From an uncultured Gammaproteobacteria bacterium (lineage in GTDB: Bacteria; Patescibacteriota; Patescibacteriia; Buchananbacterales; UBA6539), in contig CAZINP010000004.1 in assembly GCA_964540635.1 (NCBI GenBank), forward strand, positions 55,306 to 119,305: a stretch of 64,000 nucleotides of DNA. Direction: 5' to 3'. Below, piece after piece: positions 13,811 through 59,820 of this stretch (position 1 is the stretch's first letter; each line of letters opens with the position of its first letter). The notes under the pieces were generated by a model. The model did no database searches. It was not told the DNA's origin and saw nothing but the letters and a program-made list of their open reading frames with translations. The position numbers were made by a program, and so were the translations under genes.

Positions 13811-13832
13811 AAAAAAAGCCCGAATTCGGGCT
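13811..13832 (-). terminator. Terminator for the minus-strand small gene
   Basis: AGCCCGAATTCGGGCT is followed by T7 on the minus strand. Confidence 0.5.
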
Positions 13833-14034
13833 ATAGGCCGATGGCGTCTTTGAGCCAAATGGCACCCTGCCAGAGAATAGCTCCGGCAATGAGGATGGCC
13901 GCGCCAACAATGCAAAGAGCGCAAATGCCGGAGGTTTCTTTCAGTTTTTTGCAATCAAAACAAAGATCGCTTTCTTCTTTTTCTTGCGGCGTCAGTGGTT
14001 CGCCGCAATTTTCGCACCGGAATTCTTCTTGCAT
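13831..14034 (-). CDS. Small zinc-ribbon protein with a C-terminal TM helix (67 aa)
   Basis: Motifs CENCG...CFDCKK are present. The RBS GGAGGG lies 7 nt upstream. An upstream TTGACA promoter and a downstream terminator are also present. Confidence 0.5.
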   Translation of the reverse strand: MQEEFRCENCGEPLTPQEKEESDLCFDCKKLKETSGICALCIVGAAILIAGAILWQGAIWLKDAIGL

Positions 14035-14102
14035 ATCTTACCCTCCATGGTATGGTTGCAATTTCTAATATAAATCTAAAGGAAAGACTATCTTTTGTCA
14101 AA

Positions 14103-14137
14103 TAAAAAAGACCCGGTTTGATCCGGGTCTTTTTTTA
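14103..14137. terminator. Bidirectional intrinsic terminator after trpS
   Basis: The hairpin AGACCCGGtttgaTCCGGGTCT is flanked by A- and T-runs. Confidence 0.7.
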
Positions 14138-15103
14138 TATCAATCCAATTTTTTCTTTGACTTCTTTTAGGGTTTTATCGGCTGCTTTGGCTGCTTTTTT
14201 TGCGCCGTCTTCTAAAACTTTTTTCGCTTTGGCGTCAGTAATTTTTTTCTTTCTTTCTCGGAAGGCGGCAAAATAATCGGCGATATCTTGAGTAAGTTGA
14301 TTTTTTAACTCTGAATATTTTAGTTCGTGATTTTGTTGAGCGGTTAACATTTGATCGTAAATTGTTTTTTTGGAAAATATTTTTATCAGGTCTAAAAGAT
14401 TTTTTGCTCCTTGGGACTTGCCATCACCCGTGTCGGTTACGGCTTTGGCAAGTTTGGCTTTTATTGTTTCCGGCTCATCGTCAATATAGATGCAGTGGTT
14501 ATCGCCCAAAGATTTTGACATTTTCTTTTCCGGTAAAAGCAGGCTCATGACTTTTGGCGTTGGCGTGAAAAGCGGTTGTGGTTCCGGAAAGGTTTGGCCA
14601 AACTTGTTGTTAAAAAATCCGGCCGCATCGCGCGCCAATTCTACATGTTGGGTTTGGTCTTGGCCAACCGGAATTTTTGTTGATTTATACATCAAAATAT
14701 CAGCGGCCATTAAAATCGGATAGAACAGCAATCCGGCATTTACTTTGTCATTTTCCCTGTCGCTTGATTTATCTTTATACTGAGTCATTCTGAATAAATA
14801 AGAAGCGGGAATAACGTTTTGCAAAATAATGGCTAATTCCGAATGTTGAGGCATATGTGATTGAGCAAAGACGGTGCATTTTTTGGGATCAAGTCCGGCC
14901 GCCAAATAATCTTTGGTCAAATCAATAATTTGTTTTTGTTTTTCGGTTGGATCAAATTGTTCATTTAAAGAATGCAAATCGGCAATAAAAAAATAGCAAT
15001 CATAATTGTCTTGCAATTTTAAGAAATTGCTCAACGAGCCGAGGTAATTGCCGATATGGATTTTTCCGGTGGGGCGAATGCCCGATAAAATAATGTCTTT
15101 CAT
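14135..15103 (-). CDS. trpS: Tryptophanyl-tRNA synthetase
   Basis: The class I signature PTGKIHIGNY (HIGH) and KMSKS are present. It has a Lys-rich C-terminal tail. Confidence 0.9.
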   Translation of the reverse strand: MKDIILSGIRPTGKIHIGNYLGSLSNFLKLQDNYDCYFFIADLHSLNEQFDPTEKQKQIIDLTKDYLAAGLDPKKCTVFAQSHMPQHSELAIILQNVIPASYLFRMTQYKDKSSDRENDKVNAGLLFYPILMAADILMYKSTKIPVGQDQTQHVELARDAAGFFNNKFGQTFPEPQPLFTPTPKVMSLLLPEKKMSKSLGDNHCIYIDDEPETIKAKLAKAVTDTGDGKSQGAKNLLDLIKIFSKKTIYDQMLTAQQNHELKYSELKNQLTQDIADYFAAFRERKKKITDAKAKKVLEDGAKKAAKAADKTLKEVKEKIGLI

Positions 15104-15206
15104 ATTTTTAATTATATTATTTTATTGAATATCTGTCCATTTTTTATTAAAGAATTTGGAGGGGCTCAGGCCGTAGCCATTTTGCCCCTCCAAAGATTTT
15201 TTGCAA

Positions 15207-15404
15207 TCACTTTTTGCCGTAATTCAAGCAAGTTTGATTGCCGCAAACAAAGATCGTAATCGTTTTCATGCCTTGGCCAAAGCCGGCTGAAACCTGGATT
15301 TGTTTTTCGGTGCGCACACCCTGACAATGCAAGCAGCGCCCTGCCCTGATGACATGGATTGCCTGGCCCATGACGTCATTTTCTTTTTGGGTTTGTTCTG
15401 ACAT
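15207..15404 (-). CDS. Small four-Cys (CLHC...CGNQTC) zinc-ribbon-like protein, 65 aa, between the T-box leader and trpS
   Basis: AAGGAGA lies 7 nt before the ATG, immediately after the T-box terminator. The longer 93-aa ORF is rejected because its N-terminus overlaps the leader. Confidence 0.5.
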   Translation of the reverse strand: MSEQTQKENDVMGQAIHVIRAGRCLHCQGVRTEKQIQVSAGFGQGMKTITIFVCGNQTCLNYGKK

Positions 15405-15414
15405 TTCAAGTCTC

Positions 15415-15725
15415 CTTTGGCGGTTGATGTCACAAAAAAAGATCCCGTCCCCTAAACGCAAAAAATTGCGCTTAAAGGACGAGATCATTATCCCGCGGTA
15501 CCACCTTTATTGTCTTTTATTTTAGCTTAAGGCTAATAAAAAAAGACCGCTTTCAGGCGCTTTGAAACCAACACGCCTTATCCTTAGGTTACGGAGGAAG
15601 CCGGATTGACACTAACGCATCAATCATCATGTCCACTGAAGTCTTGACGTAGGTGGACGAAGCATACCCAACCCCCGAAATAATCGGGGATATGCTTCAA
15701 AGATTTTACAGTTTTTAAAGATAAA
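15415..15725 (-). promoter_or_regulatory. T-box riboswitch leader (tRNA-sensing antitermination), presumably Trp-specific
   Basis: The minus strand contains AAAGGUGGUACCGCGGGA, which matches the conserved T-box AGGGUGGNACCGCG. It is followed by the terminator hairpin GATCTCGTCC...GGACGGGATC plus U7 (15434-15486). Upstream stem-loops lie at 15600-15700. The downstream gene is an aaRS. Confidence 0.75.
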
Positions 15726-15728
15726 TAT

Positions 15729-15756
15729 ATTCTAGCAAAGTTGTAGAAAATGTCAA
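15729..15756 (-). promoter_or_regulatory. Sigma70-like promoter TTGACA-16-TAGAAT driving the T-box leader
   Basis: The minus strand reads TTGACAttttctacaactttgcTAGAAT. Confidence 0.6.
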
Positions 15757-15780
15757 ATAAAAAAAGGCAGGGAGGTTTGC

Positions 15781-40625: not shown

Positions 40626-41459
40626 ATGGCTTTTGAAGGAAGAAAAAAAGATAATCGCACCATTTTAGAGGATATATATCATGAGGATATATCTGCCAAA
40701 TCGGCAAAAATCCAAATTAAGGAATATTTCAGTGATCCAAATAGAATTGAAAAATTGCTTTCGGCAAGTATTTTGTTTGTCGGCCTAGTTGCGTTGCTTC
40801 TAGGTCTTTTTCAGATAAAAAATAACATTTCGCCGGTAAAAAGGATTGCTCAAAAAACCAATGTCAATCAGGTTGATAACGAAGACTTGCTCGGTCTGAA
40901 GCAAAAAGATACGGATCAAGACGGGTTATCCGATTATGATGAGCTTAAAGTTTATAAAACCAGCCCCTATATTGCCGATACTGACTCCGATGGTTTTGAC
41001 GATAAAATTGAAATCGTTCAGGGGACTGATCCGGTTTGTCCGGAGGGTCAAAATTGTTTTGCCAACTGGACGGAAAATCCGCTAACCAACCCCAATGATC
41101 AGTCAAGTCAGGATCAGGCGCAAAATTTATCAGCGGATCAATTACGAGAAATGTTAATTCAGGCCGGCATGAGCGAGGAACAGTTGAGTCTTTTAAGTGA
41201 TGAAGAAATAGTGAATGCGTACCAACAAATTGCCGGCCAGCAAAGCACGCAAACAATTTCTGGTTCAAACGATTCTGGTCAATCAGCTTCGCTGACCCTG
41301 CCTTTACAGGAATTAAAAAATTTAACTCCAAATGAAATTAGGGAATTATTGGCCGAGAATACCGATATTACCGCCGAAACCCTTGCCAGTATTTCTGATG
41401 AAGAATTAATGAATTTAGTTAATGAAACCTTAGCTAACTATAAAGTCAATGGAAACTGA
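40626..41459 (+). CDS. Membrane-anchored protein with thrombospondin type-3-like calcium-binding repeats
   Basis: One TM helix is present. DTDQDGLSDYDE and DTDSDGFDD are DxDxDGxxDxxD repeats. It overlaps the start of the giant gene by 11 nt. Confidence 0.5.
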   Translation: MAFEGRKKDNRTILEDIYHEDISAKSAKIQIKEYFSDPNRIEKLLSASILFVGLVALLLGLFQIKNNISPVKRIAQKTNVNQVDNEDLLGLKQKDTDQDGLSDYDELKVYKTSPYIADTDSDGFDDKIEIVQGTDPVCPEGQNCFANWTENPLTNPNDQSSQDQAQNLSADQLREMLIQAGMSEEQLSLLSDEEIVNAYQQIAGQQSTQTISGSNDSGQSASLTLPLQELKNLTPNEIRELLAENTDITAETLASISDEELMNLVNETLANYKVNGN

Positions 41460-44400
41460 AAATAAAAATCAAATTGATAAAATGGAATTTGGATTTTATA
41501 AAAAATCAATTACTACCACTGTTTTAATCAGCATGGTTTTTTCGGTTGTTATGCCGGCCCTGCTTTTCCCGCTTGATCCGGTTTTGGCTGACAATAAGAT
41601 GAGTCCTTTGCCCGCAACTCAGCCCGGTTCGGCAGCTGCCGGGGCGGTACCTCAGCCAAAATTGAACAGCGAGACCATCAACGAGGCAAATAGGGCTGAA
41701 TCGGTAAAGGTTTATGACTCCAGCCTAATCAGCAAGGTTCGCGAAACAAATACAATTACTTCTTCATTTAAAAAGGGCGTTGAAGTAATTGCCGATACTT
41801 TTAATACCAGAGATTGGAGTTGGGAGAGCTTGAAGGATGCAGTTTATGTGGCCTCCAAGGAAGCTTTAAATTATTTATTGAATACTTTTGCTTACGATGT
41901 AGCCACCTGGTTGGCGTCTGGCGACAAGGGTCAGCAGCCGATGTTTTTTACTGACGGCTGGGGTCCATATTTGACCAATGTTTTAGATGAAGCCGGCGGT
42001 GTCTTTTTGGAGTCATTGGGTCAAGATTGGGGCAATTTCAATTTATGTAATCCGACTGTTTTTAATTTGAAAGTCAGCATCGGTTTGGGTATTGCTGAAA
42101 TGGACAAACCAAAGAAGCCATCATGCACTATTACGCAAATGGTAAACAATTGGGATAAGATGATCAGTGATGGCAGGATTTTAGACAATATTGATTTGAT
42201 GTTTGATTCCAAGAATAATGATTTTGGCATTACCCTGGATATTTTAGGTCGTCACGCGGAGTACAAAACGCAAGCGGCTTTGAATGCAACCAAAGATAGA
42301 GAAGAGGGTCAAGGTGCCAAGAGTGTGAGCGGAAAAATAGCTGATAAAATATTTACTCCCGCCTTTTTGGTCAGGGATGAGGCTCAATTAATGTTGGCCA
42401 AGGGTACAGTGGCAGACGAACAGGTCAATTACGGTGATATTTTCATGAATGCGGTTAGTAATTTTATTAATACTTTAGCCGGTAAGCTTTTAGATAGAAT
42501 ATTTAAAGAAGGTTTGGCGGCTTTGAGCGGCAGTAATAGTAGTAATAAAGATAGTGATAACAGCGATTTATTTGACGCCCTAAGGACAGGTGAAGAAATC
42601 GGCCGTAATCTTTATAATTTGTTAACAAATCAAGACGATGAGCTCTACACCGGCCAAACAGGCACAACCTTGTTTGCCGGCAAGCAAGCTTCTCAGGAAA
42701 GATATAGCGGTCTTCTACGTGCGGGTGTTAAAGAAACCGGACCATATGATGTCCTGACGAAATTTGTGGTCTGCCAGGATCCAAAGAACCCGGGCGTTGA
42801 TGAGTGTGTGATTGATCAAAAATTCCGATCGGCAATCTCTAAAAAAATTACTTTGCGTCAAGCCATCTCCGAAGGCCTGATTAATGGCGATGCCCCGTTT
42901 GGTTATAAAGCGGCAACCATTAAAGAGGGCATACCGTACAGAACCATCGTTATTTTACGCGCGCATCGTATTGTTCCAATCGGTTGGGAGTTGGCCGCCA
43001 GAGTGGCCAACGAGTTTGTGCCCCAAGAAACCTGGACTCTAAATAAGTTAATTGAAAATTATAATGTTTTAGGTAGTCCGTTTAAGGGTTTGGTTGATCC
43101 GAACTGGGTTTTGGAAGTGCCTTTGCATTATTGTAAGGCTCAGGGTTATGGCGCCAAGATTCTGTCTGACAAAATTGTGGCCGGAACTGATGCCAATAAT
43201 GACGGCGATTATGATGACGCGAGTGATTTGGCGCCGGGTCGAACCGTTTCCAGAGAACAGTATTGTGCTGACTTCCAGACCTGCATTCAGAAGAGTAGCG
43301 ATGGCGGCTGTTTATATTACGGCTATTGTACTGAAGAAAAACCGATTTGGGATTTGGATGGCAAAGAATGTAAATCACAATTTAACACTTGTTTAACCTT
43401 TCAAAAGGCCGGCGATAAAGTTGTCAGCTATTTGGAAAACACTTTGAATTATAATAATTGTAGTAAAGAAAACGCCGGATGTCAGTGGTATTGCAATGAA
43501 TTTAATACAATAAATAACATTTGGTCTTGTACGGCAGAAAGTGAAAAGGTGTTAAAGACTTGCAGTCAGACTAGTCGCGACGGCCAGGGTGTTGTCGGCT
43601 GCATTACAAATGCCAGCTGTGAAATGAATACCGGCGATACGGTTTGTAATGATTTGGTCAGCGGTATTAAGATGGTAATTTCTCAGCCTTGCAGCAATAC
43701 GACTAAGTGGTGGAATGCCGCCACTAATAAATGTACGGTTTCAGCTTCTTGTACAATTCCAAAAGGTGGCGTTTATTGCCAGGTTGGCGGTTGCGAAAAT
43801 CTGGAAAATTTATTGCCCAACCCGAGCTTTGAAACAGCTTCAACCACTTATGACGTGCCTTCGCCGGCTCTTGGCTGGTATGCCGATACGAATTACTTCA
43901 AGAAGGTTGGCAGCGCTCTGGATTATATTTATCGCGGCAAATCAAGTTTAAGATTTTATAATGCCGGCACCCTTGTCAGTGAGAATGCAATTTCCGGCAA
44001 CGTTTTACTCAAGACGGGAAGCTACACTTTATCCGGTTATATATTTAATAATTTGAATGTTGGTGAGATAAAGATTGCCGCTATTAATGCGGCCGGCAGC
44101 GAGATTAAATCCATTGCCTTGTCTACTGAGGGAAAACAGACTTGGTATCAGGCCAGTTTTGATTTTAGCGTTACGGCCGATACCCAGGTCAGAGTTAAAA
44201 TAAATGTTACCGATCCAAATGGCAACCAAGTGAGCGGTTCGGCCTGGTTTGATAATTTTAGAATTTCCCAAAGCTGTATTACCAACCCAATTACTTTAAC
44301 CATGGTTGGCGATGTTGAAAAGTCAGAAAGTAAGATTAATTTTGATCGCGATGTTAAAACTTGCCCTTCGGATGCGGCCGGTTGTACGGAATTTATTAGC

Positions 44401-47400
44401 CTTCAGCCAAATGGCAGCGTGAATTTGGTGCGAAACGCCAGTTTTGAGGACTGGTTAGATGGTACGCCTTTACCAAAGGGCTGGCGTTACGGTGAGCATT
44501 GGTCTGATAGCAATAATGAGATTTCAAGGTACACGCCCGGTGTTTTGGGTAGCAATGCTTTATTGATAAAGAATGGTTCAGATAATCATTATCGTGATTT
44601 CTCGACCGATCCGATTGTGGGCATGAAACCGAATACTTCTTATCGCGTTTCTTTCTATGTTAAAACCGATGATTCAGTGCCGGGTCAGAATTGGTATGCC
44701 GAAATTATTTCAGATAATAACCCCGATTATTATTGCGCTCAAAAGACAAGTCAAAATTGCGCCTCTGTTGCTTGTGATGCCGGCGACACTTGCATAAGCG
44801 ATTGGACGCCAATAGATGTGGGGGGCAGGCAAAAGTTTACTTTGACCAATAATTGGCGCCGAATCGTTTTTGATGTAATAACGACCAGATCGCTTGGTTA
44901 TGATTTCAAATTAAGTTTTGATAATGCGTTAGATGAAAATTCAACCATAATTATTGATGGTGTTCAAATTGAAGAGGTTGACACCAGAAACCCGATTGCT
45001 TCCGAATTTAGAAATTACGGCACTTCCAATTTATTTAATATTAAAAAAGCGCCGGATAATTTATCTTGTCGCGGTTACACCAAAACCAGACCAAGCCCAT
45101 ATGTTCTGCCGGGTGTTGGTTACGAACAGTGTGTGGGCGATACTTTGGTTTGGCGCAAATTCTGCGATGGCGGTGAAAATGCCGGCCAGCCTTGCGGCGG
45201 CACGGCTGATTGTCCCGGTGCCGAATGCCGGCCGGACAGCTGCAGTTCTGTTAATCCAAATGAATGTTGCCATGAAATTGACGCGCCAATTTGCTCTAAT
45301 TATTCAATGCTTTGCCAAGAAGACGAAGTCGGTTGTCAGTTATTTACGCCGGTTGGCCAAAGCGGTGCCGGCACCAAACTCTCGGCAGTTGCCCAGTTGA
45401 CTGATTATTGTCCGGCCGAATGTGTTGGCTATGAAGCCTTTTATCAGTCCGCTACGTTTTTGGAAAGACAACAAACTTTGGAATATTTTATTCCTAAAAC
45501 CGCCAAATCTTGTCCGGCCTCAGCCGTTGGTTGTGATGAATTTACCAATCTGGACGAAGTGGCCAAGGGCGGTGAGGGCAAAGAGTATTATCAGTATTTG
45601 CGTTTATGCCAAAAACCAACCGAACCGGCGGCTAATTGCACCTCGTTCTATGCTTGGCAGGGGAGCGATGAGGCTGGTTATCAATTAAAATCTTATTTGC
45701 TTAAAGCTGACACTAATAATACACCGGCTCGAGCAATTACCGATTTATCATTATTGCCTGATGCGTGGTGTTCTGACAAAACCCTTGATGCCACCGGCTT
45801 GCCCGAGTGTTGCAATGGTCCGGAAGATATAATTACCAATCCTTTCTGTAAAGAATTGATTGGTGCTGACAGTCAAATTAGTTATAGAATTTATTTGAAT
45901 ACTATCAGCTGTTCAAACGATTGCCATCCCTATCGCAAAACAGTTTACGGTGGCAGCACGGCTGACAATCAAACAAATTGCACCCAGACTAGCGGCAATT
46001 GGGATAGTAACTTAAATGCTTGTATTTACCAGGCTATTCCGAACGAAGGCTTAAAGTGCTCGTCGGCCAATGCCGGTTGCCGTGAATACCGTGGCAATAC
46101 CGCCGGCAATGTTTATATTGCTTTGAGCGATACCTTTGAAACCGGCACAACTGTTAATTGGTCTAATGGTGTTATATCCAGCGAAGCCCTTTCGGTTGGT
46201 GGTCACTCAATTAGATCTTATAGCAATAATTTGGAAACGATTATTAATGACCTAGGTTCTGTTTGCAACAAGGACAGCGCCACCTATGATTCGCAGTCAA
46301 ACCGCTGCACGACAACAACGGGTGATTGCAGCGTAGCAATTGGCCAGCGATATTGTGGCGTTATTGGCTCAAGTTTAACAGCCGGTAAGATGTATATTAT
46401 TGGTTTCTGGGCCAAAACTTCCAGCGATATTAGAAATTTGGATCTTAAGCTTAAGACCGCCGGCATAAGCGACAATACTCTTGGCAGTGTTTCTATCAAT
46501 AACGATTGGGCTTATTACTTGATTGGCCCGGTAACATATGACCAAACCAAAGACATTAACCTTTCGTCTAGATTAAATTTCTCTTCCGATGGTGATTTCT
46601 ATCTTGATAATTTAATCGTTAAAGAAGTTAATAATTTTGTTTACGCGATTAAGGGCTCCTGGAATACGCCGGCTTCTTGTGATACCAATCCGTTTTTGGC
46701 CGAACCGATTTTTGCGCCTCAATTTATGCTTGGCTGCAAACAGTATTTGGATTCGGATAATTTATACCATAATCTTAAATCGTTCTCCAATCTCTGCCGA
46801 GAAGAAGCCGTTGGTTGCCAGGCAATGATTGATACTTATAATTCAACATCACCTTTTGAGGTGAAAGCGCCGTTTGAAGATAAGCTTTCAACCGTTACCG
46901 TGCCGGAAGACAAACTGACCTATATTGTTAATAGAGCTGATGTCAGATGCAACGCTCAATATCAGGGCTGTCAGGCTTTTGGCGTGCCGACGATTTCATA
47001 TGATAGCTTGAGTAAGCCCGTTGTTACCGGCTACTCTCAGGCCTATTTAATTAACGATCCGGACGCTTACAACTCAATACTTTGTGCTCGAGGTGAAAAC
47101 GGTTGTGATGAGTATCAATCAGCCAACGGTTATTCATACTTTAAGGACCCGGGTACCCAGACTTGTGAGTGGAAATTGATCCCGAATAAAAATAAATACG
47201 GCTGGTTCAGAACCGATATGTCAAGTGATACGCCGAATTGTCCAATGGTAAATCCGCCGGTCGGGCAAGCGCATCCGGACGGCAGCAAGGGTTTTGTCGG
47301 TTTGTGTCCGGCCGATCAAAACACCTGCACGCTATTTATTGATCCGATTAGCGATATCAGTAAAAATCAAATTTTTAATTCTGATTTTTATGCCGACGTT

Positions 47401-50400
47401 GACAATGACAAAACACCCGATGGTTGGATAAAATCCGGCAGCACGGTTTACCAGAAAGTATCATTGTCTCATGACACCTTATATACTTTTTCGGTAGAGG
47501 TTGCTGACAAGACAAGCGTTGGCGGTTTGAGTGTAGTATTAACCAACTGTCTCGGTTTGAGATCGTTTGATAATTCAATGGTAATTTCCGGTTCAACCGC
47601 TCAAATCCCAATGGATTATATAGTTGGTGATACAAGAGAAATCAATAATTTAAATAATAACCGTGCTTATTCAGCCAGAATTTACTCGCCTGCTGATATG
47701 ACTTGTCGGCTGGAAATCAGTGGCTTAGACGGAACTAATCCAAAGTCAGATCTAAACAGTAAATTAAGCAAGGTTGCTTTTAGAGAAACCGGTCAGTATT
47801 ACACCCTGGCCAATACGGTTGATACTCTTACTTGCAACGGCGTGGTCAATCCCAATAACGGCTGTGTTTTGTTTAACGACAGAAGTTATGTTAATTATCA
47901 TCTGGGTGAAAATGATATTAGTTATTTGTCTTTCGATGCGGATGCTTCCGGTGTTGATGATAGGGGGCAGCCAATTAATAATGGCTTAGCTGTTAGTAAT
48001 CTTGGCCGAATGCCTGGTGATTCTAATTCGGTTCTAAAGGTTATACCCGATAGAACTTGTGCCACCTGGTTGGCTTGTACCGGTTCGGTTTCGGAAACTG
48101 ACGAAAAAAATGCTGACAAGAAATATTGTACTGATTTGGGTTTATGCGATCAGGCTGATGAAAACGGCAATTGCACAAATTTTGTTGTCACCAAAGAGGG
48201 CAACGATCGTCAAACTTATTTTGATCGCGAGTTAATAAAGAATTATAGCGGTTTTGCGCAGTCCGGTTTGGCTTTTGAAAGCGTGGCCGCTTCCTTGCCG
48301 GGTAATTTCTTGCCGGCTGAAATGCAGCAAGTTGGTGGAATCGCTTTCTCGCCCAGTACCAATTTTGAAACAATTACGGCCGGCGATTTTAGGCCTTATG
48401 GTTGGAATTTGGATTGTCCGCAAACAACAAATCCTCCGGTTAAAAATTTCTTAAAAACGGAATGGAAGCGCGAATATGCTCAAGTAATTACCAATCCGGT
48501 TTCAGCTCAACAAGAGGGACTTTCTTCGGCTGCTCCCGAAGGTACGGCATTTGTTAAACTGACCGGCCCATATGTTATTAGTTCAGAAAAAATTGATGTT
48601 AACGGCAATACCAAATATACAGTTTCTGCTTATATCAATACAGAAAAATTGATAACCGGGCAGGCTAGAATTGTAATTGAAGAATATGATCTATCAAGCT
48701 CAGTGCCAATTAAAACAATTGGACTTTCTGGTCCTCAACTGGAACAGTTAAGGCTTGACTCTTCGCAGAAGTGGACCTTTAAAATTGCCGAATTTATAAC
48801 AGAAACAGGAGCTTCAAGCATTAAGATTAAGTTGATGAATTTTAATGAGAAAAGCGATCGATTTAGAAACCCTTGTACCAACACTGAAGGTCGTATTCAT
48901 GAAATTTTAGGCAGTTCTTATTTTGATGATATTAAGGTTAAACCAAGTTTGGAAGTTTCAAGAGATTCAAATGGCAGTATTTTTGTGCCGCCGACTTGCC
49001 GCGTGTATCCGGAAAGCGACTCATTGTCTTGTGATTATTACAGTGATAAGGGTTATCATTTCCGCGGTTGGCTTGGATATTGCCTTGAGCCCGATCCGGC
49101 CAATTCAGCTCAATGTTTGATGTGGTGGCCGGTTGAGTTGATTCAGGGCGGATTTATCAGCGAAGAACCGTCAGTGGCTCAGCGCCCATTGTATTATTGC
49201 TTGGGTGCCAAGGAAAGCCATTATCGCTATCGCCAATGCGTTTTTGAAGACGGTGAAATGTGCGCCTCGCTCAAGCGACCGTCTTCAGACAAATCGGCCA
49301 GAACCAGAAATATTGAGTGGACCGTACCCGGTTCTTGGCGGGTTCAAAGTTGGCAGGTTGAGGGTTTGAGTGTAGCCTCATCAATCAGTGATTGTGGCGC
49401 CTCTGATCAATGTGGTATAAATTTTGGATTATTTAAACTGATTAAAAATCCAACCATTCCTAATAGTTATTTCGGTTCAGGCATTAGTGCTGATTTGGTT
49501 TATGATAGCGATGGACTGTTGGAAAAAATTAAATTTGAAATAGTCGGCCCGAATTGTTTGTGTGCGGATATGGATGTGGTTTTACAAGTTGTCAGTTCGT
49601 GGTGCCAATATGTGGCTCAGACCATTACCCCTTATGGACAAAACAAGGCTTGGTGGGAAAGAGTATCTAATAACTCCGGTCAGCTTTTTGCCGTGCCCGG
49701 CGTTGGTTATACCAATCTATTTGATTATCCGCCATTTGGTGCTTTGGTGCCGCCTTATCCGGTTGATAATCCGGCTGTTTGGGATTTGAGATCGTCTGGG
49801 GACACTTATTTTGCTCCTCTTAGGGTTGAAGAACCGCAAACCGGAAATTTTGCCGATCCGTACCAGGCTAGAGCCGGCTTACCTTATGCTTGTTCACAGC
49901 TTTCAGCCGCATTTGGCGATACTAGTTGTACCTTGCCGACGCTTAATCGTGCGACCAGCAGTTCAATTGTTTATAATAAAGATGTTGCTCAGGCTCAAGA
50001 TTCTTTGAAACGTATTTTTGCCAAGAGCTACGAAACTTATCAGTTTCAGGGTGACGGTGTTTGCAAGACCAGTTCCGATCAAGTGGGCGGCAAAGAGTGT
50101 GCTTGTCCGGAAAGCACTTGTGGTTTGGAAGCCAATGTAACCTTTAATACTTGTAAGAATACCGGCGCGGTTTGTGAGGTTGGACAATTTGCCTGTATGG
50201 ATATTTCCGATATCGGTCAAACATTAATTATGTTTATTGTTGAAAGCGGATATACAAGTGGACCCAATATTGTTGCCATGATTGTTGGCGCGGTGGTTCA
50301 GGTGGTATTGGAATTTTTAACCGCTTGCTCACCAAAACCTTGCGACTCAACTTGTGATGCCGGGGAAGGTCAGTGTATTCCGTTGCCGCAATATTTAACT

Positions 50401-51729
50401 AATTTTTACGGCTTAAGCAGTGATGATCCGGGCGCATTTTCGATTGTTTGGAATTTAATTTTTGGTAATCTTTTTAGTTCAATATTTGCCTTAGGCGAAG
50501 ATCCATCTTCTGATAGTATTGCTGATATAATTCAAGATGCAGTTGATTCTGGGGGATCAAATGAGTATTTATTAGAGGGACAGGGCGCTCTTGGGTCACT
50601 TGGTGCTGTTGGTTTAGTTTTAGGTAATCAGCTGGAAGCTTTTACTGGGAATTATTGTTCCCTGACGGATTTCCGTTGTCAGTCAGGAACAAATGATGGG
50701 TCGCGCTGTTGTTTCTTCTCTTCTTGTCAGGCAAAACAAAATGTCACTTATCGCTGCTTAGCCGGCCCGAATAAGGGCATGATCTGCGATCCGGATGAGG
50801 ATAACTGTGGTACTAGCGCCGACTGCAAAATTAGAACTGCAAACGAATCATATTTGCCAATTAACGATAATCAGCCCGGTGTTTTGCAGGCGGCTTTGCC
50901 ATGGAATCCACCAACAGGACTATGTACCAATAACAGCAGGCCGGAATTTGTTTGCAAATCAGGGCTTAATCGTAATAATTCATGCTTGTCCAACAATGAT
51001 TGTCCGAGCTTTGTTGGTGTTTGCATTAAGAATGCCCAAAAGGTTATGGTTTGCCGCGATAAGAATGGCGATGAAAGACCTTCAAGCGACTGTAATACTG
51101 AAGATGACAAAAATAAAGAATGCAGAACTGACGACGCGTCTTGTGTTCTTAAATCAGACATGACTACATTGGCGTCTTCGTTGTCGGGAATGGATTATTG
51201 CGCGGTAGCCCCGGCCGTTACATCCGTTAAGGTTAATAATGCCGCTAATGCCGAATTATCTTTGTATGGTGGTGACACGGCATCTCTTACCTTTACGGTT
51301 AAGATTAATCCTCAGCAGTTGCCTTTGACCAGCTATACCATTGACTGGGGTGATGCCAAGAAGACTTCACTTTCCGGTCAGTCTCTTTTAAGCCGTGAAA
51401 ATTCCACAAAACCGTTTTCAGCCAGCCATACCTATTCTTACTGGGAATTAAGGGCACTTGACTCAAAGAGCAGCGACGGAACTAATAGCGATGTGAAATG
51501 TCGCACCCGAGACGCTCAAGGCAAATGCTGCCACGCAAACGAAGATTTCTGCCGTGTTTTGCCCAGGGTTCAAATAATTGATAATTGGAACTGGTGCAAC
51601 AACGGTAACGGCCAAAGCGGTTATTATGGTTCAGACTGTGCGGCTGAAGCCCAAGATAACAAAACCAATCCGGCCGCGGCCGCTAATGCTTGGATGCCTT
51701 ACGCCAAGGAACTGCGCATATATCCTTAA
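41449..51729 (+). CDS. Giant (3426 aa) Cys-rich secreted/surface protein with repeated CBM4/9-like jelly-roll modules and a C-terminal membrane anchor
   Basis: A single uninterrupted ORF with an N-terminal signal/TM. Five modules begin with N(P/A)SFE...GW (aa ~790, ~990, ~1560, ~1975, ~2300). There are >150 Cys. A hydrophobic segment lies at aa ~2920-2960. A PKD-like YTIDWGD motif sits near the C-terminus. Confidence 0.75.
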   Translation: METENKNQIDKMEFGFYKKSITTTVLISMVFSVVMPALLFPLDPVLADNKMSPLPATQPGSAAAGAVPQPKLNSETINEANRAESVKVYDSSLISKVRETNTITSSFKKGVEVIADTFNTRDWSWESLKDAVYVASKEALNYLLNTFAYDVATWLASGDKGQQPMFFTDGWGPYLTNVLDEAGGVFLESLGQDWGNFNLCNPTVFNLKVSIGLGIAEMDKPKKPSCTITQMVNNWDKMISDGRILDNIDLMFDSKNNDFGITLDILGRHAEYKTQAALNATKDREEGQGAKSVSGKIADKIFTPAFLVRDEAQLMLAKGTVADEQVNYGDIFMNAVSNFINTLAGKLLDRIFKEGLAALSGSNSSNKDSDNSDLFDALRTGEEIGRNLYNLLTNQDDELYTGQTGTTLFAGKQASQERYSGLLRAGVKETGPYDVLTKFVVCQDPKNPGVDECVIDQKFRSAISKKITLRQAISEGLINGDAPFGYKAATIKEGIPYRTIVILRAHRIVPIGWELAARVANEFVPQETWTLNKLIENYNVLGSPFKGLVDPNWVLEVPLHYCKAQGYGAKILSDKIVAGTDANNDGDYDDASDLAPGRTVSREQYCADFQTCIQKSSDGGCLYYGYCTEEKPIWDLDGKECKSQFNTCLTFQKAGDKVVSYLENTLNYNNCSKENAGCQWYCNEFNTINNIWSCTAESEKVLKTCSQTSRDGQGVVGCITNASCEMNTGDTVCNDLVSGIKMVISQPCSNTTKWWNAATNKCTVSASCTIPKGGVYCQVGGCENLENLLPNPSFETASTTYDVPSPALGWYADTNYFKKVGSALDYIYRGKSSLRFYNAGTLVSENAISGNVLLKTGSYTLSGYIFNNLNVGEIKIAAINAAGSEIKSIALSTEGKQTWYQASFDFSVTADTQVRVKINVTDPNGNQVSGSAWFDNFRISQSCITNPITLTMVGDVEKSESKINFDRDVKTCPSDAAGCTEFISLQPNGSVNLVRNASFEDWLDGTPLPKGWRYGEHWSDSNNEISRYTPGVLGSNALLIKNGSDNHYRDFSTDPIVGMKPNTSYRVSFYVKTDDSVPGQNWYAEIISDNNPDYYCAQKTSQNCASVACDAGDTCISDWTPIDVGGRQKFTLTNNWRRIVFDVITTRSLGYDFKLSFDNALDENSTIIIDGVQIEEVDTRNPIASEFRNYGTSNLFNIKKAPDNLSCRGYTKTRPSPYVLPGVGYEQCVGDTLVWRKFCDGGENAGQPCGGTADCPGAECRPDSCSSVNPNECCHEIDAPICSNYSMLCQEDEVGCQLFTPVGQSGAGTKLSAVAQLTDYCPAECVGYEAFYQSATFLERQQTLEYFIPKTAKSCPASAVGCDEFTNLDEVAKGGEGKEYYQYLRLCQKPTEPAANCTSFYAWQGSDEAGYQLKSYLLKADTNNTPARAITDLSLLPDAWCSDKTLDATGLPECCNGPEDIITNPFCKELIGADSQISYRIYLNTISCSNDCHPYRKTVYGGSTADNQTNCTQTSGNWDSNLNACIYQAIPNEGLKCSSANAGCREYRGNTAGNVYIALSDTFETGTTVNWSNGVISSEALSVGGHSIRSYSNNLETIINDLGSVCNKDSATYDSQSNRCTTTTGDCSVAIGQRYCGVIGSSLTAGKMYIIGFWAKTSSDIRNLDLKLKTAGISDNTLGSVSINNDWAYYLIGPVTYDQTKDINLSSRLNFSSDGDFYLDNLIVKEVNNFVYAIKGSWNTPASCDTNPFLAEPIFAPQFMLGCKQYLDSDNLYHNLKSFSNLCREEAVGCQAMIDTYNSTSPFEVKAPFEDKLSTVTVPEDKLTYIVNRADVRCNAQYQGCQAFGVPTISYDSLSKPVVTGYSQAYLINDPDAYNSILCARGENGCDEYQSANGYSYFKDPGTQTCEWKLIPNKNKYGWFRTDMSSDTPNCPMVNPPVGQAHPDGSKGFVGLCPADQNTCTLFIDPISDISKNQIFNSDFYADVDNDKTPDGWIKSGSTVYQKVSLSHDTLYTFSVEVADKTSVGGLSVVLTNCLGLRSFDNSMVISGSTAQIPMDYIVGDTREINNLNNNRAYSARIYSPADMTCRLEISGLDGTNPKSDLNSKLSKVAFRETGQYYTLANTVDTLTCNGVVNPNNGCVLFNDRSYVNYHLGENDISYLSFDADASGVDDRGQPINNGLAVSNLGRMPGDSNSVLKVIPDRTCATWLACTGSVSETDEKNADKKYCTDLGLCDQADENGNCTNFVVTKEGNDRQTYFDRELIKNYSGFAQSGLAFESVAASLPGNFLPAEMQQVGGIAFSPSTNFETITAGDFRPYGWNLDCPQTTNPPVKNFLKTEWKREYAQVITNPVSAQQEGLSSAAPEGTAFVKLTGPYVISSEKIDVNGNTKYTVSAYINTEKLITGQARIVIEEYDLSSSVPIKTIGLSGPQLEQLRLDSSQKWTFKIAEFITETGASSIKIKLMNFNEKSDRFRNPCTNTEGRIHEILGSSYFDDIKVKPSLEVSRDSNGSIFVPPTCRVYPESDSLSCDYYSDKGYHFRGWLGYCLEPDPANSAQCLMWWPVELIQGGFISEEPSVAQRPLYYCLGAKESHYRYRQCVFEDGEMCASLKRPSSDKSARTRNIEWTVPGSWRVQSWQVEGLSVASSISDCGASDQCGINFGLFKLIKNPTIPNSYFGSGISADLVYDSDGLLEKIKFEIVGPNCLCADMDVVLQVVSSWCQYVAQTITPYGQNKAWWERVSNNSGQLFAVPGVGYTNLFDYPPFGALVPPYPVDNPAVWDLRSSGDTYFAPLRVEEPQTGNFADPYQARAGLPYACSQLSAAFGDTSCTLPTLNRATSSSIVYNKDVAQAQDSLKRIFAKSYETYQFQGDGVCKTSSDQVGGKECACPESTCGLEANVTFNTCKNTGAVCEVGQFACMDISDIGQTLIMFIVESGYTSGPNIVAMIVGAVVQVVLEFLTACSPKPCDSTCDAGEGQCIPLPQYLTNFYGLSSDDPGAFSIVWNLIFGNLFSSIFALGEDPSSDSIADIIQDAVDSGGSNEYLLEGQGALGSLGAVGLVLGNQLEAFTGNYCSLTDFRCQSGTNDGSRCCFFSSCQAKQNVTYRCLAGPNKGMICDPDEDNCGTSADCKIRTANESYLPINDNQPGVLQAALPWNPPTGLCTNNSRPEFVCKSGLNRNNSCLSNNDCPSFVGVCIKNAQKVMVCRDKNGDERPSSDCNTEDDKNKECRTDDASCVLKSDMTTLASSLSGMDYCAVAPAVTSVKVNNAANAELSLYGGDTASLTFTVKINPQQLPLTSYTIDWGDAKKTSLSGQSLLSRENSTKPFSASHTYSYWELRALDSKSSDGTNSDVKCRTRDAQGKCCHANEDFCRVLPRVQIIDNWNWCNNGNGQSGYYGSDCAAEAQDNKTNPAAAANAWMPYAKELRIYP

Positions 51730-59361: not shown

Positions 59362-59820
59362 ATGCAGCAATTTGTCGTGCCACAATTTATCGACGTTGAG
59401 GATAAGGTTTTAGGTCCGATTACCGTGCGTCAATTTATCATTATTTTGGTTGGCGGCGGTCTTATTTTTGTCGCCTATAAGTTAGCAGATCTTACTTTAT
59501 TCATTTTGGAAGCGGTGATTATTGCTTTTGCAACATTTATTATCGCCTTTGTTAAGATAAACGGCCGGCCAATTCATTATTTTTTCCTAAATGTCTTGCA
59601 GACTTTAATGAGAGACCGGCTCCGCGTTTGGCTTAAAGTTTATTCTCGTCAAGAAATAAAAGAAGCGGAAAATGCACCGGCACCAAAATTACCAATGGAA
59701 ATACTGACCAGAAATAAAGTTCGCGCCTCGCGTTTGGCGGAAATGGCTTTAATTGTTGATACGGGTGGAATTTATGAGGGCGAGAAAGAACCGCCGGAAA
59801 GTAAAAACGAATTAGTATGA
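59362..59820 (+). CDS. VirB3-like small two-TM protein
   Basis: 152 aa with two adjacent hydrophobic helices. It sits immediately upstream of, and overlaps, the VirB4 N-terminal ORF. Confidence 0.45.
   Translation: MQQFVVPQFIDVEDKVLGPITVRQFIIILVGGGLIFVAYKLADLTLFILEAVIIAFATFIIAFVKINGRPIHYFFLNVLQTLMRDRLRVWLKVYSRQEIKEAENAPAPKLPMEILTRNKVRASRLAEMALIVDTGGIYEGEKEPPESKNELV

Follow-up and report, generated by a model that had tools for sequence, protein, structure and literature searches.

Which gene does a T-box leader control when the first open reading frame (ORF) behind it is not that of an aminoacyl-tRNA synthetase, and is the leader a T-box at all when the standard covariance model does not report it? 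These questions are raised by a leader that precedes a 65-amino-acid (aa) ORF and trpS on the minus strand of a 64,000-nucleotide (nt) stretch of contig CAZINP010000004.1 (GenBank assembly GCA_964540635.1, positions 55,306 to 119,305), referred to here as the window. The assembly is deposited as an uncultured Gammaproteobacteria bacterium, and a scan of genome representatives with TrpS groups the window with Candidatus Buchananbacteria and other Patescibacteria. By its conserved sequence and structural elements, the leader is a genuine Trp T-box riboswitch. The reading we favor, with a probability of about 0.7, is that it would sense tRNA-Trp through a decoding module with a short Stem I and act by transcription antitermination, gating a small protein, and that trpS would be separately promoted. 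What appears to be new is a Class IV-like decoding module joined to a transcription terminator, in a bacterium of the Candidate Phyla Radiation (CPR, or Patescibacteria), with a tiny predicted zinc-ribbon protein as the first regulated gene. No mention of T-boxes together with CPR or Patescibacteria was found in the searchable literature, which is weak evidence of novelty, as most subscription journals are outside its coverage.

The T-box core and its truncated Stem I

The leader runs from a promoter to an intrinsic terminator and comprises the following elements, in window coordinates; related loci are designated by L and a number.

15729 to 15756, minus strand: promoter of the T-box unit, TTGACA (15756-15751)-16-TAGAAT (15734-15729) with a TG extension, 11 of 12 consensus matches
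15659 to 15698, minus strand: truncated Stem I, from folds and covariation, with basal helix GAAGCAUAU/GUAUGCUUC, upper helix CCCCGA/UCGGGG, cap UUAUU and 3' side bulge GUUGG
15668 to 15670, minus strand: putative specifier codon UGG (Trp), the last triplet of the 3' side bulge, followed by G15667, which pairs with U15690; from position, bulge comparison and regulon
15631 to 15658, minus strand: hairpin 2 (GUCCAC...GUGGAC), an optional insert that L003 and L005 lack
15604 to 15625, minus strand: Stem II, GAUUGA-UGCGUUAGUG-UCAAUC, with a UGC...AGUG motif (S-turn candidate), aligned to Stem II of RF00230
15581 to 15603, minus strand: Stem IIA/B pseudoknot with F-box-like CCGUAA, from the RF00230 alignment; IIA is CGG-CUUCCU-CCG, and IIB pairs UCCU (15598-15595) with AGGA (15584-15581)
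15555 to 15578, minus strand: extra linker hairpin GGCGUG...GCGCC, from folding, kept unchanged in L003 and almost unchanged in L004 and L006
15510 to 15552, minus strand: Stem III (15547-15512) flanked by AAGCG and AA, which fits the RRRxG-Stem III-AA motif defined in PMC7583486
15492 to 15508, minus strand: T-box sequence AAAGGUGGUACCGCGGG, from sequence and the RF00230 alignment
15474 to 15508, minus strand: T-box sequence and antiterminator, from alignment and folding, with helix A1 AAAGG/CCUUU, 7-nt bulge UGGUACC and helix A2 opening with a G.U pair
15434 to 15486, minus strand: intrinsic terminator, from folding, a 20-bp stem (15486-15441) plus U7, its 5' arm doubling as the 3' half of the antiterminator

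The original prediction had described a near-consensus T-box directly before a terminator and U7, transcribed from a TTGACA-16-TAGAAT promoter, and had required pairing of the T-box with the 5' half of the terminator. Each of these elements is borne out: the T-box sequence carries the 7-nt bulge and overlaps the 20-bp terminator, the promoter has its TG extension, with equivalent hexamers in L003, L004 and L006, and the antiterminator pairing (A1, bulge and A2) is found at 15508-15474. The leader as a whole (approximately 15725-15425) folds at -111 kcal/mol, with z = -7.5 against its shuffles. The antiterminator (-10.6 kcal/mol) has nucleotides 15486-15474 in common with the terminator, whose stem folds at -33.9 kcal/mol (z = -10.1) and shows compensatory changes relative to L003. 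The two structures, built from overlapping strands, are mutually exclusive, and a U-run follows the terminator. Consensus folding of 28 distinct leaders recovered A1, the 7-nt bulge and A2, with compensatory changes at 4 of 10 pairs.

At its gathering score, the Rfam T-box model RF00230 reports nothing anywhere in the window. Under relaxed filters, 15645-15472 is matched with 49 bits, as against a gathering score of 93 (E = 1.3e-9 in a local search and 1e-7 over the whole window), and no second T-box match appears in the window. In this alignment 89 model positions are deleted, essentially the whole of Stem I, and a good alignment is obtained for Stem II, the IIA/B element, Stem III and the antiterminator. 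The low score is thus attributable to a naturally truncated Stem I and not to the absence of a T-box, and the gathering threshold, used as a yes/no test, was set aside as misleading because the Stem I deletion drives the score. The original prediction had named a score under threshold as grounds for its own rejection; the score does fall there, and the T-box is nevertheless present, with an atypical Stem I.

The Stem I hairpin reads GAAGCAUAU-CCCCGA-UUAUU-UCGGGG-(GUUGG)-GUAUGCUUC. It has neither an AG bulge nor a distal loop, the part above the specifier is limited to 6 bp and a 5-nt loop, and the distal platform for tRNA elbow docking that characterizes Class I is absent. A bulge parse of 79 distinct related leaders, found by searching for UGGG and with at least 5 contiguous basal pairs required, gave GUUGG in 39, AUUGG in 15, GUGG in 12, GCUGG in 9, exactly UGG in 2 and one-off longer bulges in the remaining 2, UGG being the sole triplet shared across every variant. 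By eye, UGG and a purine lie directly 5' of the 3' strand of the basal helix in all printed leaders, and L081 and L175 have the canonical form GAA-UGG-A. We assign the specifier to UGG 15670-15668 on account of where it lies, its invariance and the genes that make up the regulon. The original prediction had placed it in another hairpin, at UGG 15635-15633; that triplet sits in the 3' arm of hairpin 2, which the close relative L003 and also L005 lack, and the canonical position is occupied by the triplet in Stem I. The GG of the specifier (15668-15669) may pair with CC at 15688-15689 on the same strand, as may its equivalent in relatives, which could occlude the codon in free RNA.

Across the 79 leaders, positions 2-6 of the basal helix carry 3-6 Watson-Crick or wobble pair types each (at position 4, AU 35, GC 35, GU 5, UA 2, CG 1 and UG 1); given the five-pair demand of the parse, it is this diversity of pair types, and not the paired fraction, that is informative. 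The element above the bulge ranges from 14 to 66 nt in the parsed set and is absent in L085, L129, L142 and L149, where UGG ends an apical loop and is followed by G. A textbook kink-turn (K-turn), 5'-AUC UUU GA AGC / GCU GA GAU-3', forms the base of Stem I in L003 and L005; its C-stem covaries between AUC/GAU and ACC/GGU, and tandem A.G/G.A pairs occupy basal positions 8 and 9 in 36 of the 79 leaders. In the window, L004, L006 and L043 these two positions are Watson-Crick and hairpin 2 is inserted in the non-bulged strand; in the window, AUC 15704-15702, GAU 15628-15626 and hairpin 2 create a three-way junction where relatives have the K-turn. The tRNA-Trp discriminator was also compared with the UGGN of the T-box bulge. 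In CPR contigs holding both elements, tRNA-Trp(CCA) has G73 and the bulge reads UGGU (3 contigs) or UGGC (2), a result that is compatible (G73 with U or C) and not discriminating.

The remaining modules are retained to differing degrees. The UGC-N-AGUG loop of Stem II is kept in all relatives, with a helix inserted within the loop in L006, and IIB covaries, pairing UCCU/AGGA in the window, L004 and L043, GCCU/AGGC in L006 and UUAGUCA/UGACUAA in L005. Stem III is variable, with an insert of approximately 80 nt in L003 (~805-915) that carries the direct repeat UAUCCGAAUAGCGCUACAAAUUCGCACAUCCGAA twice.

The small zinc-ribbon gene and a putative separate promoter of trpS

Four features lie between the terminator and the end of trpS.

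15207 to 15418, minus strand: Shine-Dalgarno (SD) sequence AAAGGAGA (15418-15411) and 65-aa predicted zinc-ribbon ORF (15404-15207), CxxC-x13-GFG-x10-CxNxxC; from family, codon positions and AlphaFold2
15155 to 15194, minus strand: GC-rich hairpin after the small ORF with a weak U-tract, AAAUUCUUUAAU; -28 kcal/mol, z = -4.6 to -4.9
15111 to 15139, minus strand: promoter-like TGGACA-17-TATAAT, 11 of 12 matches, with a -10 that ends 7 nt before the trpS ATG
14135 to 15103, minus strand: trpS, tryptophan--tRNA ligase, 322 aa; Pfam tRNA-synt_1b and NCBIfam TIGR00233 (308 bits, cutoff 177)

As originally proposed, the first ORF after the terminator is not trpS but a CxxC...CxxxxC protein preceded by an SD, which lies 15 nt past the U-tract and in neither helix of the switch. 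The ORF is a real gene, as judged by an excess of third-codon-position differences (8/7/24 at the three positions against L003 and 11/9/23 against L071), by some 15 relatives and by its recurrent neighborhood with trpS. The closest diverged copy, P0002 (73% identity), is on contig L003 in the same gene order. The homolog search that had been suggested for this protein, run as an exhaustive profile search among 1.84 billion representatives, recovered 16 proteins at E up to 0.001, of which P0015 (430 aa) is probably a false hit. Residues C24, C27, G43, C54 and C59 are invariant in the family and G41 nearly so, the Cys being kept in members down to approximately 25% identity; the central segment is G-F-G in most members, G-L-G in P0007 and S-W-G in P0019, where S-W replaces G-F. 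AlphaFold2, run on 10 sequences, models a helix at the N-terminus and a long beta-hairpin (strands 30-39 and 46-54) that two Cys knuckles close and that bears GFG at the tip; the predicted local distance difference test score (pLDDT) is 73 for the whole model and 81-87 for its core. The modeled knuckles (C24/C27 and C54/C59) bracket the hairpin as in a zinc ribbon, with putative metal binding.

In the recovered contexts, the small gene follows a Trp T-box. It directly precedes trpS in the window, L003, L071, L006, L126, L193/194 and L195/196, the exceptions being L004, where a TrpB-like gene comes before trpS, and L192, whose contig ends after the small ORF. In L005 (~1627-2283), a TrpG-like gene behind the T-box begins MGFGTTGNSYHQNP..., which resembles the GFG segment and could be a remnant or a fusion. 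A segment (C)UUUGGAGGCCGCU is conserved 2-20 nt past the stop codon of the small ORF in L126, L192, L193/194 and L195/196, the proteins of which have strongly diverged; it has an SD-like core, its reading frame varies across loci, and no complementary partner for it was found. The window counterpart, CUUUGGAGGGGCA (15185-15197, minus strand), forms the 5' arm of the hairpin after the ORF. Stop-codon read-through or frameshifting across the conserved motif CUUUGGAGGCCGCU was considered and dropped, since the frame is not kept between loci.

The strong hairpin that the original prediction had noted between the small ORF and trpS is present at 15194-15155, and the spacers between small ORF and trpS all hold a GC-rich hairpin (-15 to -36 kcal/mol), followed at 1-6 nt by a run of U5-U8 in 7 of 8 folded spacers. 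Abutting trpS is the promoter-like sequence, and in L003, L071, L004, L005, L006 and L007 the end of the -10 is likewise only 6-8 nt from the ATG; in these loci the hexamers are kept and the spacers diverge. The hexamers are identical to those of the window in L003, L071 and L004, the last of which has a diverged spacer, and read TTTACA-17-TAAAAT in L005 and L006 and TTTACA...TATAAC in L007. The same layout of hairpin and promoter occurs in L126 and in L099, where the small zinc-ribbon ORF is unrelated to that of the window; L193 and L195 are less clear, their best -10 candidate ending 12-14 nt before the ATG. These features argue for a separate trpS promoter that would give a leaderless or very short-leader mRNA, and such mRNAs may be common in this genome. 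Because a conserved hairpin and a conserved promoter abutting the ATG precede trpS, control of trpS by the T-box would be at most partial and by read-through only, the small ORF being the gene that the T-box would gate directly. Thus, of the proposal that the small ORF is a co-cistron of trpS, the gene itself stands, and the co-cistron is made doubtful by the terminator-like hairpin and the conserved trpS promoter. All T-box-controlled small ORFs, in the window and in relatives, have a strong SD, in contrast to large ORFs. The missing SD before trpS was withdrawn as evidence of a leaderless mRNA, as only 3 of 39 large ORFs have one, and translational coupling, judged by how far the stop codon lies from the hairpin, proved inconsistent, the distance being 4 to 25 nt among relatives.

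Related leaders, the Trp regulon and known T-box systems

A metagenome scan with the IIA/B pseudoknot segment CCTCCGTAAYCATRGGAT, a pattern chosen in the hope of finding non-Trp T-boxes of the same class, matched at least 120 stretches, of which 80 loci were listed; counts of leaders are from the matches listed. Most of the 80 loci are leaders of the same architecture, and at least ~90 related leaders share the layout, nearly all on metagenome or CPR contigs, those from the pseudoknot scan lying on metagenome contigs that are not placed taxonomically. Identity of TrpS to that of the window is 80% in L004, 72% in L005 and L006 and 66% in L007. Matches to RF00230 of 33-50 bits, below threshold, lie upstream of trpS in L004, L005, L006 and L008 and adjoin trpS in L043. 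As these leaders show, standard Rfam thresholds miss a whole T-box lineage.

The genes downstream of related leaders are TrpB-like (in L004, PRK12391 at 733 bits), TrpE (Chorismate_bind and Anth_synt_I_N), TrpG-like, TrpD-like (Glycos_transf_3) and TrpS; aminotransferase and ELFV dehydrogenase genes also occur there, and the gene of L072 is a probable TrpA candidate recognized by sequence alone. The predicted specifier, UGG followed by a purine, matches the Trp pathway that these leaders precede, and on this correspondence the element is Trp-specific, as had been predicted. The leaders outline a Trp regulon in organisms thought minimal in biosynthesis; within the window, no other Trp genes or further T-boxes were found.

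In a set of 93 distinct leaders, the terminator is followed by a first SD-preceded ORF that is small (no more than 100 aa) in 44 cases, is large in 23 and runs off the contig in 11; no such ORF was found in the other 15. Cys-knuckle proteins account for 19 of the 44 small ORFs by a strict criterion and for approximately 27 when looser cases are added, and they belong to at least three unrelated families and singletons (GFG, 'HNFCP', 'CRCGR...W-rich' and singletons with a C-terminal G-W-G). The arrangement, which the original prediction had called unusual, is so in comparison with textbook T-boxes, yet it recurs in CPR bacteria. Many of the small Cys-knuckle ORFs outside the GFG family ('HNFCP', 'CRCGR...W-rich...CxFC' and G-W-G enders) have Trp near the C-terminus; they are found at L072, L080, L086, L115, L128 and L168; at L082, L112, L123, L174 and L085; and at L099, L154 and L096. 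The first large gene behind Trp T-boxes in L043 (3937-4683), L075, L083, L124, L141 and L143 encodes a family of approximately 254 aa without a Pfam match and is often followed by an AstE/AspA-like gene. A TyrRS-type gene lies downstream in the Trp T-box units of L080, L092, L147 and L089; in L080, where its domains were scanned, it has tRNA-synt_1b and an SYY C-terminal domain and comes after a TrpB-like gene.

T-boxes of Class III have a short Stem I with the specifier in an apical loop; in those of Class IV, Stem I is intermediate, the elbow-binding motif is missing and two Stem I helices flank a side bulge that holds the specifier. Stem II is needed in both classes, of which the ileS T-boxes of the actinobacteria Actinomyces odontolyticus, Nocardia farcinica and Mycobacterium tuberculosis are examples (PMC10482949). 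The GUUGG bulge of the window, between a 9-bp basal helix and a 6-bp upper helix, corresponds to the Class IV arrangement, and the window likewise lacks the interdigitated T-loop motif that binds the elbow. Stem II and the covarying IIA/B pseudoknot are present as aligned by RF00230, the S-turn being a candidate from sequence, and the discriminator, composed of Stem III and the T-box bulge, is alike. The CPR relatives L085, L129, L142 and L149 have the apical-loop specifier of Class III; the K-turn of Class IV is canonical in L003 and L005, the window having the three-way junction and extra hairpin instead. On these features, the decoding module of the window fits the description of Class IV, and some of its relatives fit Class III. 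Unlike the known members, the window leader is directed to Trp (UGG) and not Ile, belongs to Patescibacteria and not Actinobacteria, has added linker hairpins, and uses as its platform an intrinsic terminator with the SD outside the switch, where theirs is an SD sequestrator. Short Stem I has been tied to translational control and long Stem I to transcriptional control, with the usual rationale that a co-transcriptional switch needs quick tRNA capture through elbow contact (PMC7583486, PMC7778990, PMC11297988). The pairing of short Stem I with an intrinsic terminator across these leaders thus provides a natural test of whether elbow contact is required for kinetic control.

With Class I T-boxes of the Bacillus subtilis tyrS type, represented by RF00230, the window shares the T-box sequence, the 7-nt bulge, competition between antiterminator and terminator, Stem II, the pseudoknot, Stem III, a specifier followed by a purine and an aminoacyl-tRNA synthetase locus under regulation. 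It differs from them in lacking a long Stem I, the AG bulge and the distal loop, in scoring below the Rfam gathering threshold, and in having a tiny zinc-ribbon protein as its first regulated gene. Trp-related T-boxes upstream of trpE and a trpB-like gene have also been described in Dehalococcoides of the Chloroflexi (PMC2494555); these resemble the CPR set in being Trp-specific, outside Firmicutes and ahead of trpE and trpB-like genes, a likeness drawn from the regulated genes alone.

In the Bacillus subtilis at operon, a tRNA-Trp T-box induces rtpA, encoding the small zinc-binding protein anti-TRAP, when tRNA-Trp is uncharged (PMC10327191). There as in the window, a tRNA-Trp T-box stands ahead of a predicted zinc-binding protein of approximately 50-65 residues, and the window protein is likewise a candidate for conveying to a protein target whether tRNA is charged. 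DnaJ-like CxxCxGxG repeats are found in anti-TRAP, and rtpA is linked to ycbK in Bacillus. The window protein lacks these repeats, differs in Cys spacing and has the GFG hairpin tip, and the linkage of its gene is with trpS. No sequence or fold similarity between the small protein and anti-TRAP (RtpA) was detected, and no TRAP gene was seen, although no search was aimed at TRAP. By analogy, then, the closest functional counterpart would be the Bacillus tRNA-Trp T-box that drives anti-TRAP, without detectable homology.

A proposed mechanism and its alternatives

The analysis shows the elements of sequence and structure, how they are conserved and covary, a Trp regulon, and that the small ORF is coding and linked to particular genes. 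On tRNA binding, antitermination, use of the trpS promoter and the role of the small protein, we infer the following. Transcription would start near 15722 from TTGACA-16-TAGAAT, and the nascent leader would fold into the short Stem I with UGG (15670-15668) in its side bulge, the basal junction, an S-turn-like Stem II and the IIA/B pseudoknot. The CCA anticodon of tRNA-Trp would be clamped jointly by Stem I and Stem II, with no distal platform for the elbow, and the tRNA 3' end would be tested by Stem III and the UGGU of the T-box bulge. Pairing of an uncharged GCCA-3' end with UGGU, with G.U at the discriminator, would stabilize the antiterminator (15508-15474); with charged tRNA, the 20-bp terminator (15486-15441 plus U7) would form and transcription would stop. 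Read-through transcripts would yield the SD-led 65-aa zinc-ribbon protein, and trpS would have at least basal expression from its own promoter independently of the T-box, whose input would reach it only by read-through of the hairpin. The likeliest role of the zinc-ribbon protein is that of a factor induced by Trp starvation, with TrpRS or the expression of trpS as its target. Small zinc-ribbon proteins of this kind are flagged as candidate Trp-starvation-induced gene products and are a tractable lead for small-protein biology. A broader proposal, which we regard as tentative and rather doubtful, is that CPR bacteria possess a Trp T-box lineage that joins an elbow-less Class III/IV module to a terminator and whose usual first product is a tiny zinc-ribbon protein, of several unrelated families, that relays tRNA-Trp charging as an independent analogue of anti-TRAP; an aromatic residue exposed at the hairpin tip could, for instance, let the relay protein bind TrpRS or govern the neighboring trpS, which would have its own promoter.

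Several observations weigh against the reading favored here. The RF00230 match is far below the gathering score. The count of UGG in the bulges is circular, since the parse searched for UGGG; a sequence-free parse hit the same site in only about two-thirds of the leaders, mostly with the register shifted by two nt owing to an alternative pairing of the GG of UGG with the CC at the start of the upper helix, and as about one-third of its parses chose unrelated hairpins, it was dropped as a test and kept as a caution only. No other-codon T-box of the same class was found among the matches listed, and a codon-swap test gave nothing in the way of codon-to-gene covariation, every recovered leader having UGG near Trp genes. 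The hairpin after the small ORF, without a proper U-tract in the window, is the weakest terminator of its set, and read-through into trpS may be substantial; trpS would be translatable from such a transcript, as an SD-like motif precedes only 3 of the 39 large ORFs in the window. A -10-like hexamer ahead of the ATG, at a distance of 6-9 nt, is likewise present at several other genes in the window (e.g. at 59362 and 3315). Finally, no homology to a characterized family and no fold match was detected for the small protein, which bears on its proposed function.

Some of these observations would suit a bicistronic operon, in which a common transcript carries the zinc-ribbon ORF and trpS, the hairpin (15194-15155) serves only as an RNA stabilizer or processing site and the trpS promoter is unused or minor. 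The poor U-tract is in its favor, as are the general absence of SD sequences from genes of this genome, which makes internal translation of trpS feasible, and the presence in other CPR bacteria (L145) of a Trp T-box directly upstream of trpS, control of which by a T-box is the expected ancestral logic. We nevertheless consider such an operon unlikely, given -35 and -10 hexamers kept at 6-8 nt from the ATG in the six relatives named above while the spacers diverge, the U-runs close to the hairpin in all but one of the folded spacers, and the same layout in L099 around an unrelated small ORF. Less probable still is that the small ORF is a regulatory leader ORF whose translation, and not its protein, modulates the hairpin and read-through into trpS. 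The rtpLP leader peptide of the Bacillus at operon is a precedent; the stop codon and the hairpin after it are separated by 12-14 nt in the window, L003 and L071 and by 4 nt in L099, the strong SD stands out in a genome that rarely uses one, and several unrelated small ORFs behind CPR Trp T-boxes carry Trp near the C-terminus. Yet the small protein of the window has no Trp codon, the family conserves its Cys and G-[F/W/L]-G even at approximately 25% identity with differences mostly at third positions, and the stop-to-hairpin distance ranges from 4 to 25 nt in relatives.

The two other alternatives concern the leader itself, and we consider both very improbable. A decayed or non-functional T-box would account for a score of 49 bits against 93 and for the missing elbow-binding platform; it is difficult to reconcile with at least ~90 related leaders that retain every module with compensatory changes and the same architecture ahead of Trp genes throughout, and T-boxes with a truncated Stem I are functional in Actinobacteria (PMC7583486, PMC10482949). 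Translational regulation through a sequestrator helix would agree with the short-Stem I T-boxes described in PMC7583486 and PMC11297988, which are all translational, but here the competing helix is a 20-bp hairpin with U7 immediately behind it, hairpin and U-run recur in relatives, and the SD (15418-15411) is 15 nt past the U-tract, outside either helix.

Upstream of the T-box unit lies a thrC-type threonine synthase gene (17145-15781). Directly after trpS is a second tiny CxxC...CxxC ORF (13831-14034, minus strand) of 67 aa with a C-terminal hydrophobic helix, for which no Pfam or NCBIfam family match was found; it has its own promoter-like TTGACA-17-TAGATT (14073-14101) and its own terminator (13817-13832). 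Elsewhere in the window, on the plus strand, 41449-51729 is occupied by a single ORF of 3426 aa, which is followed by one of 1051 aa.

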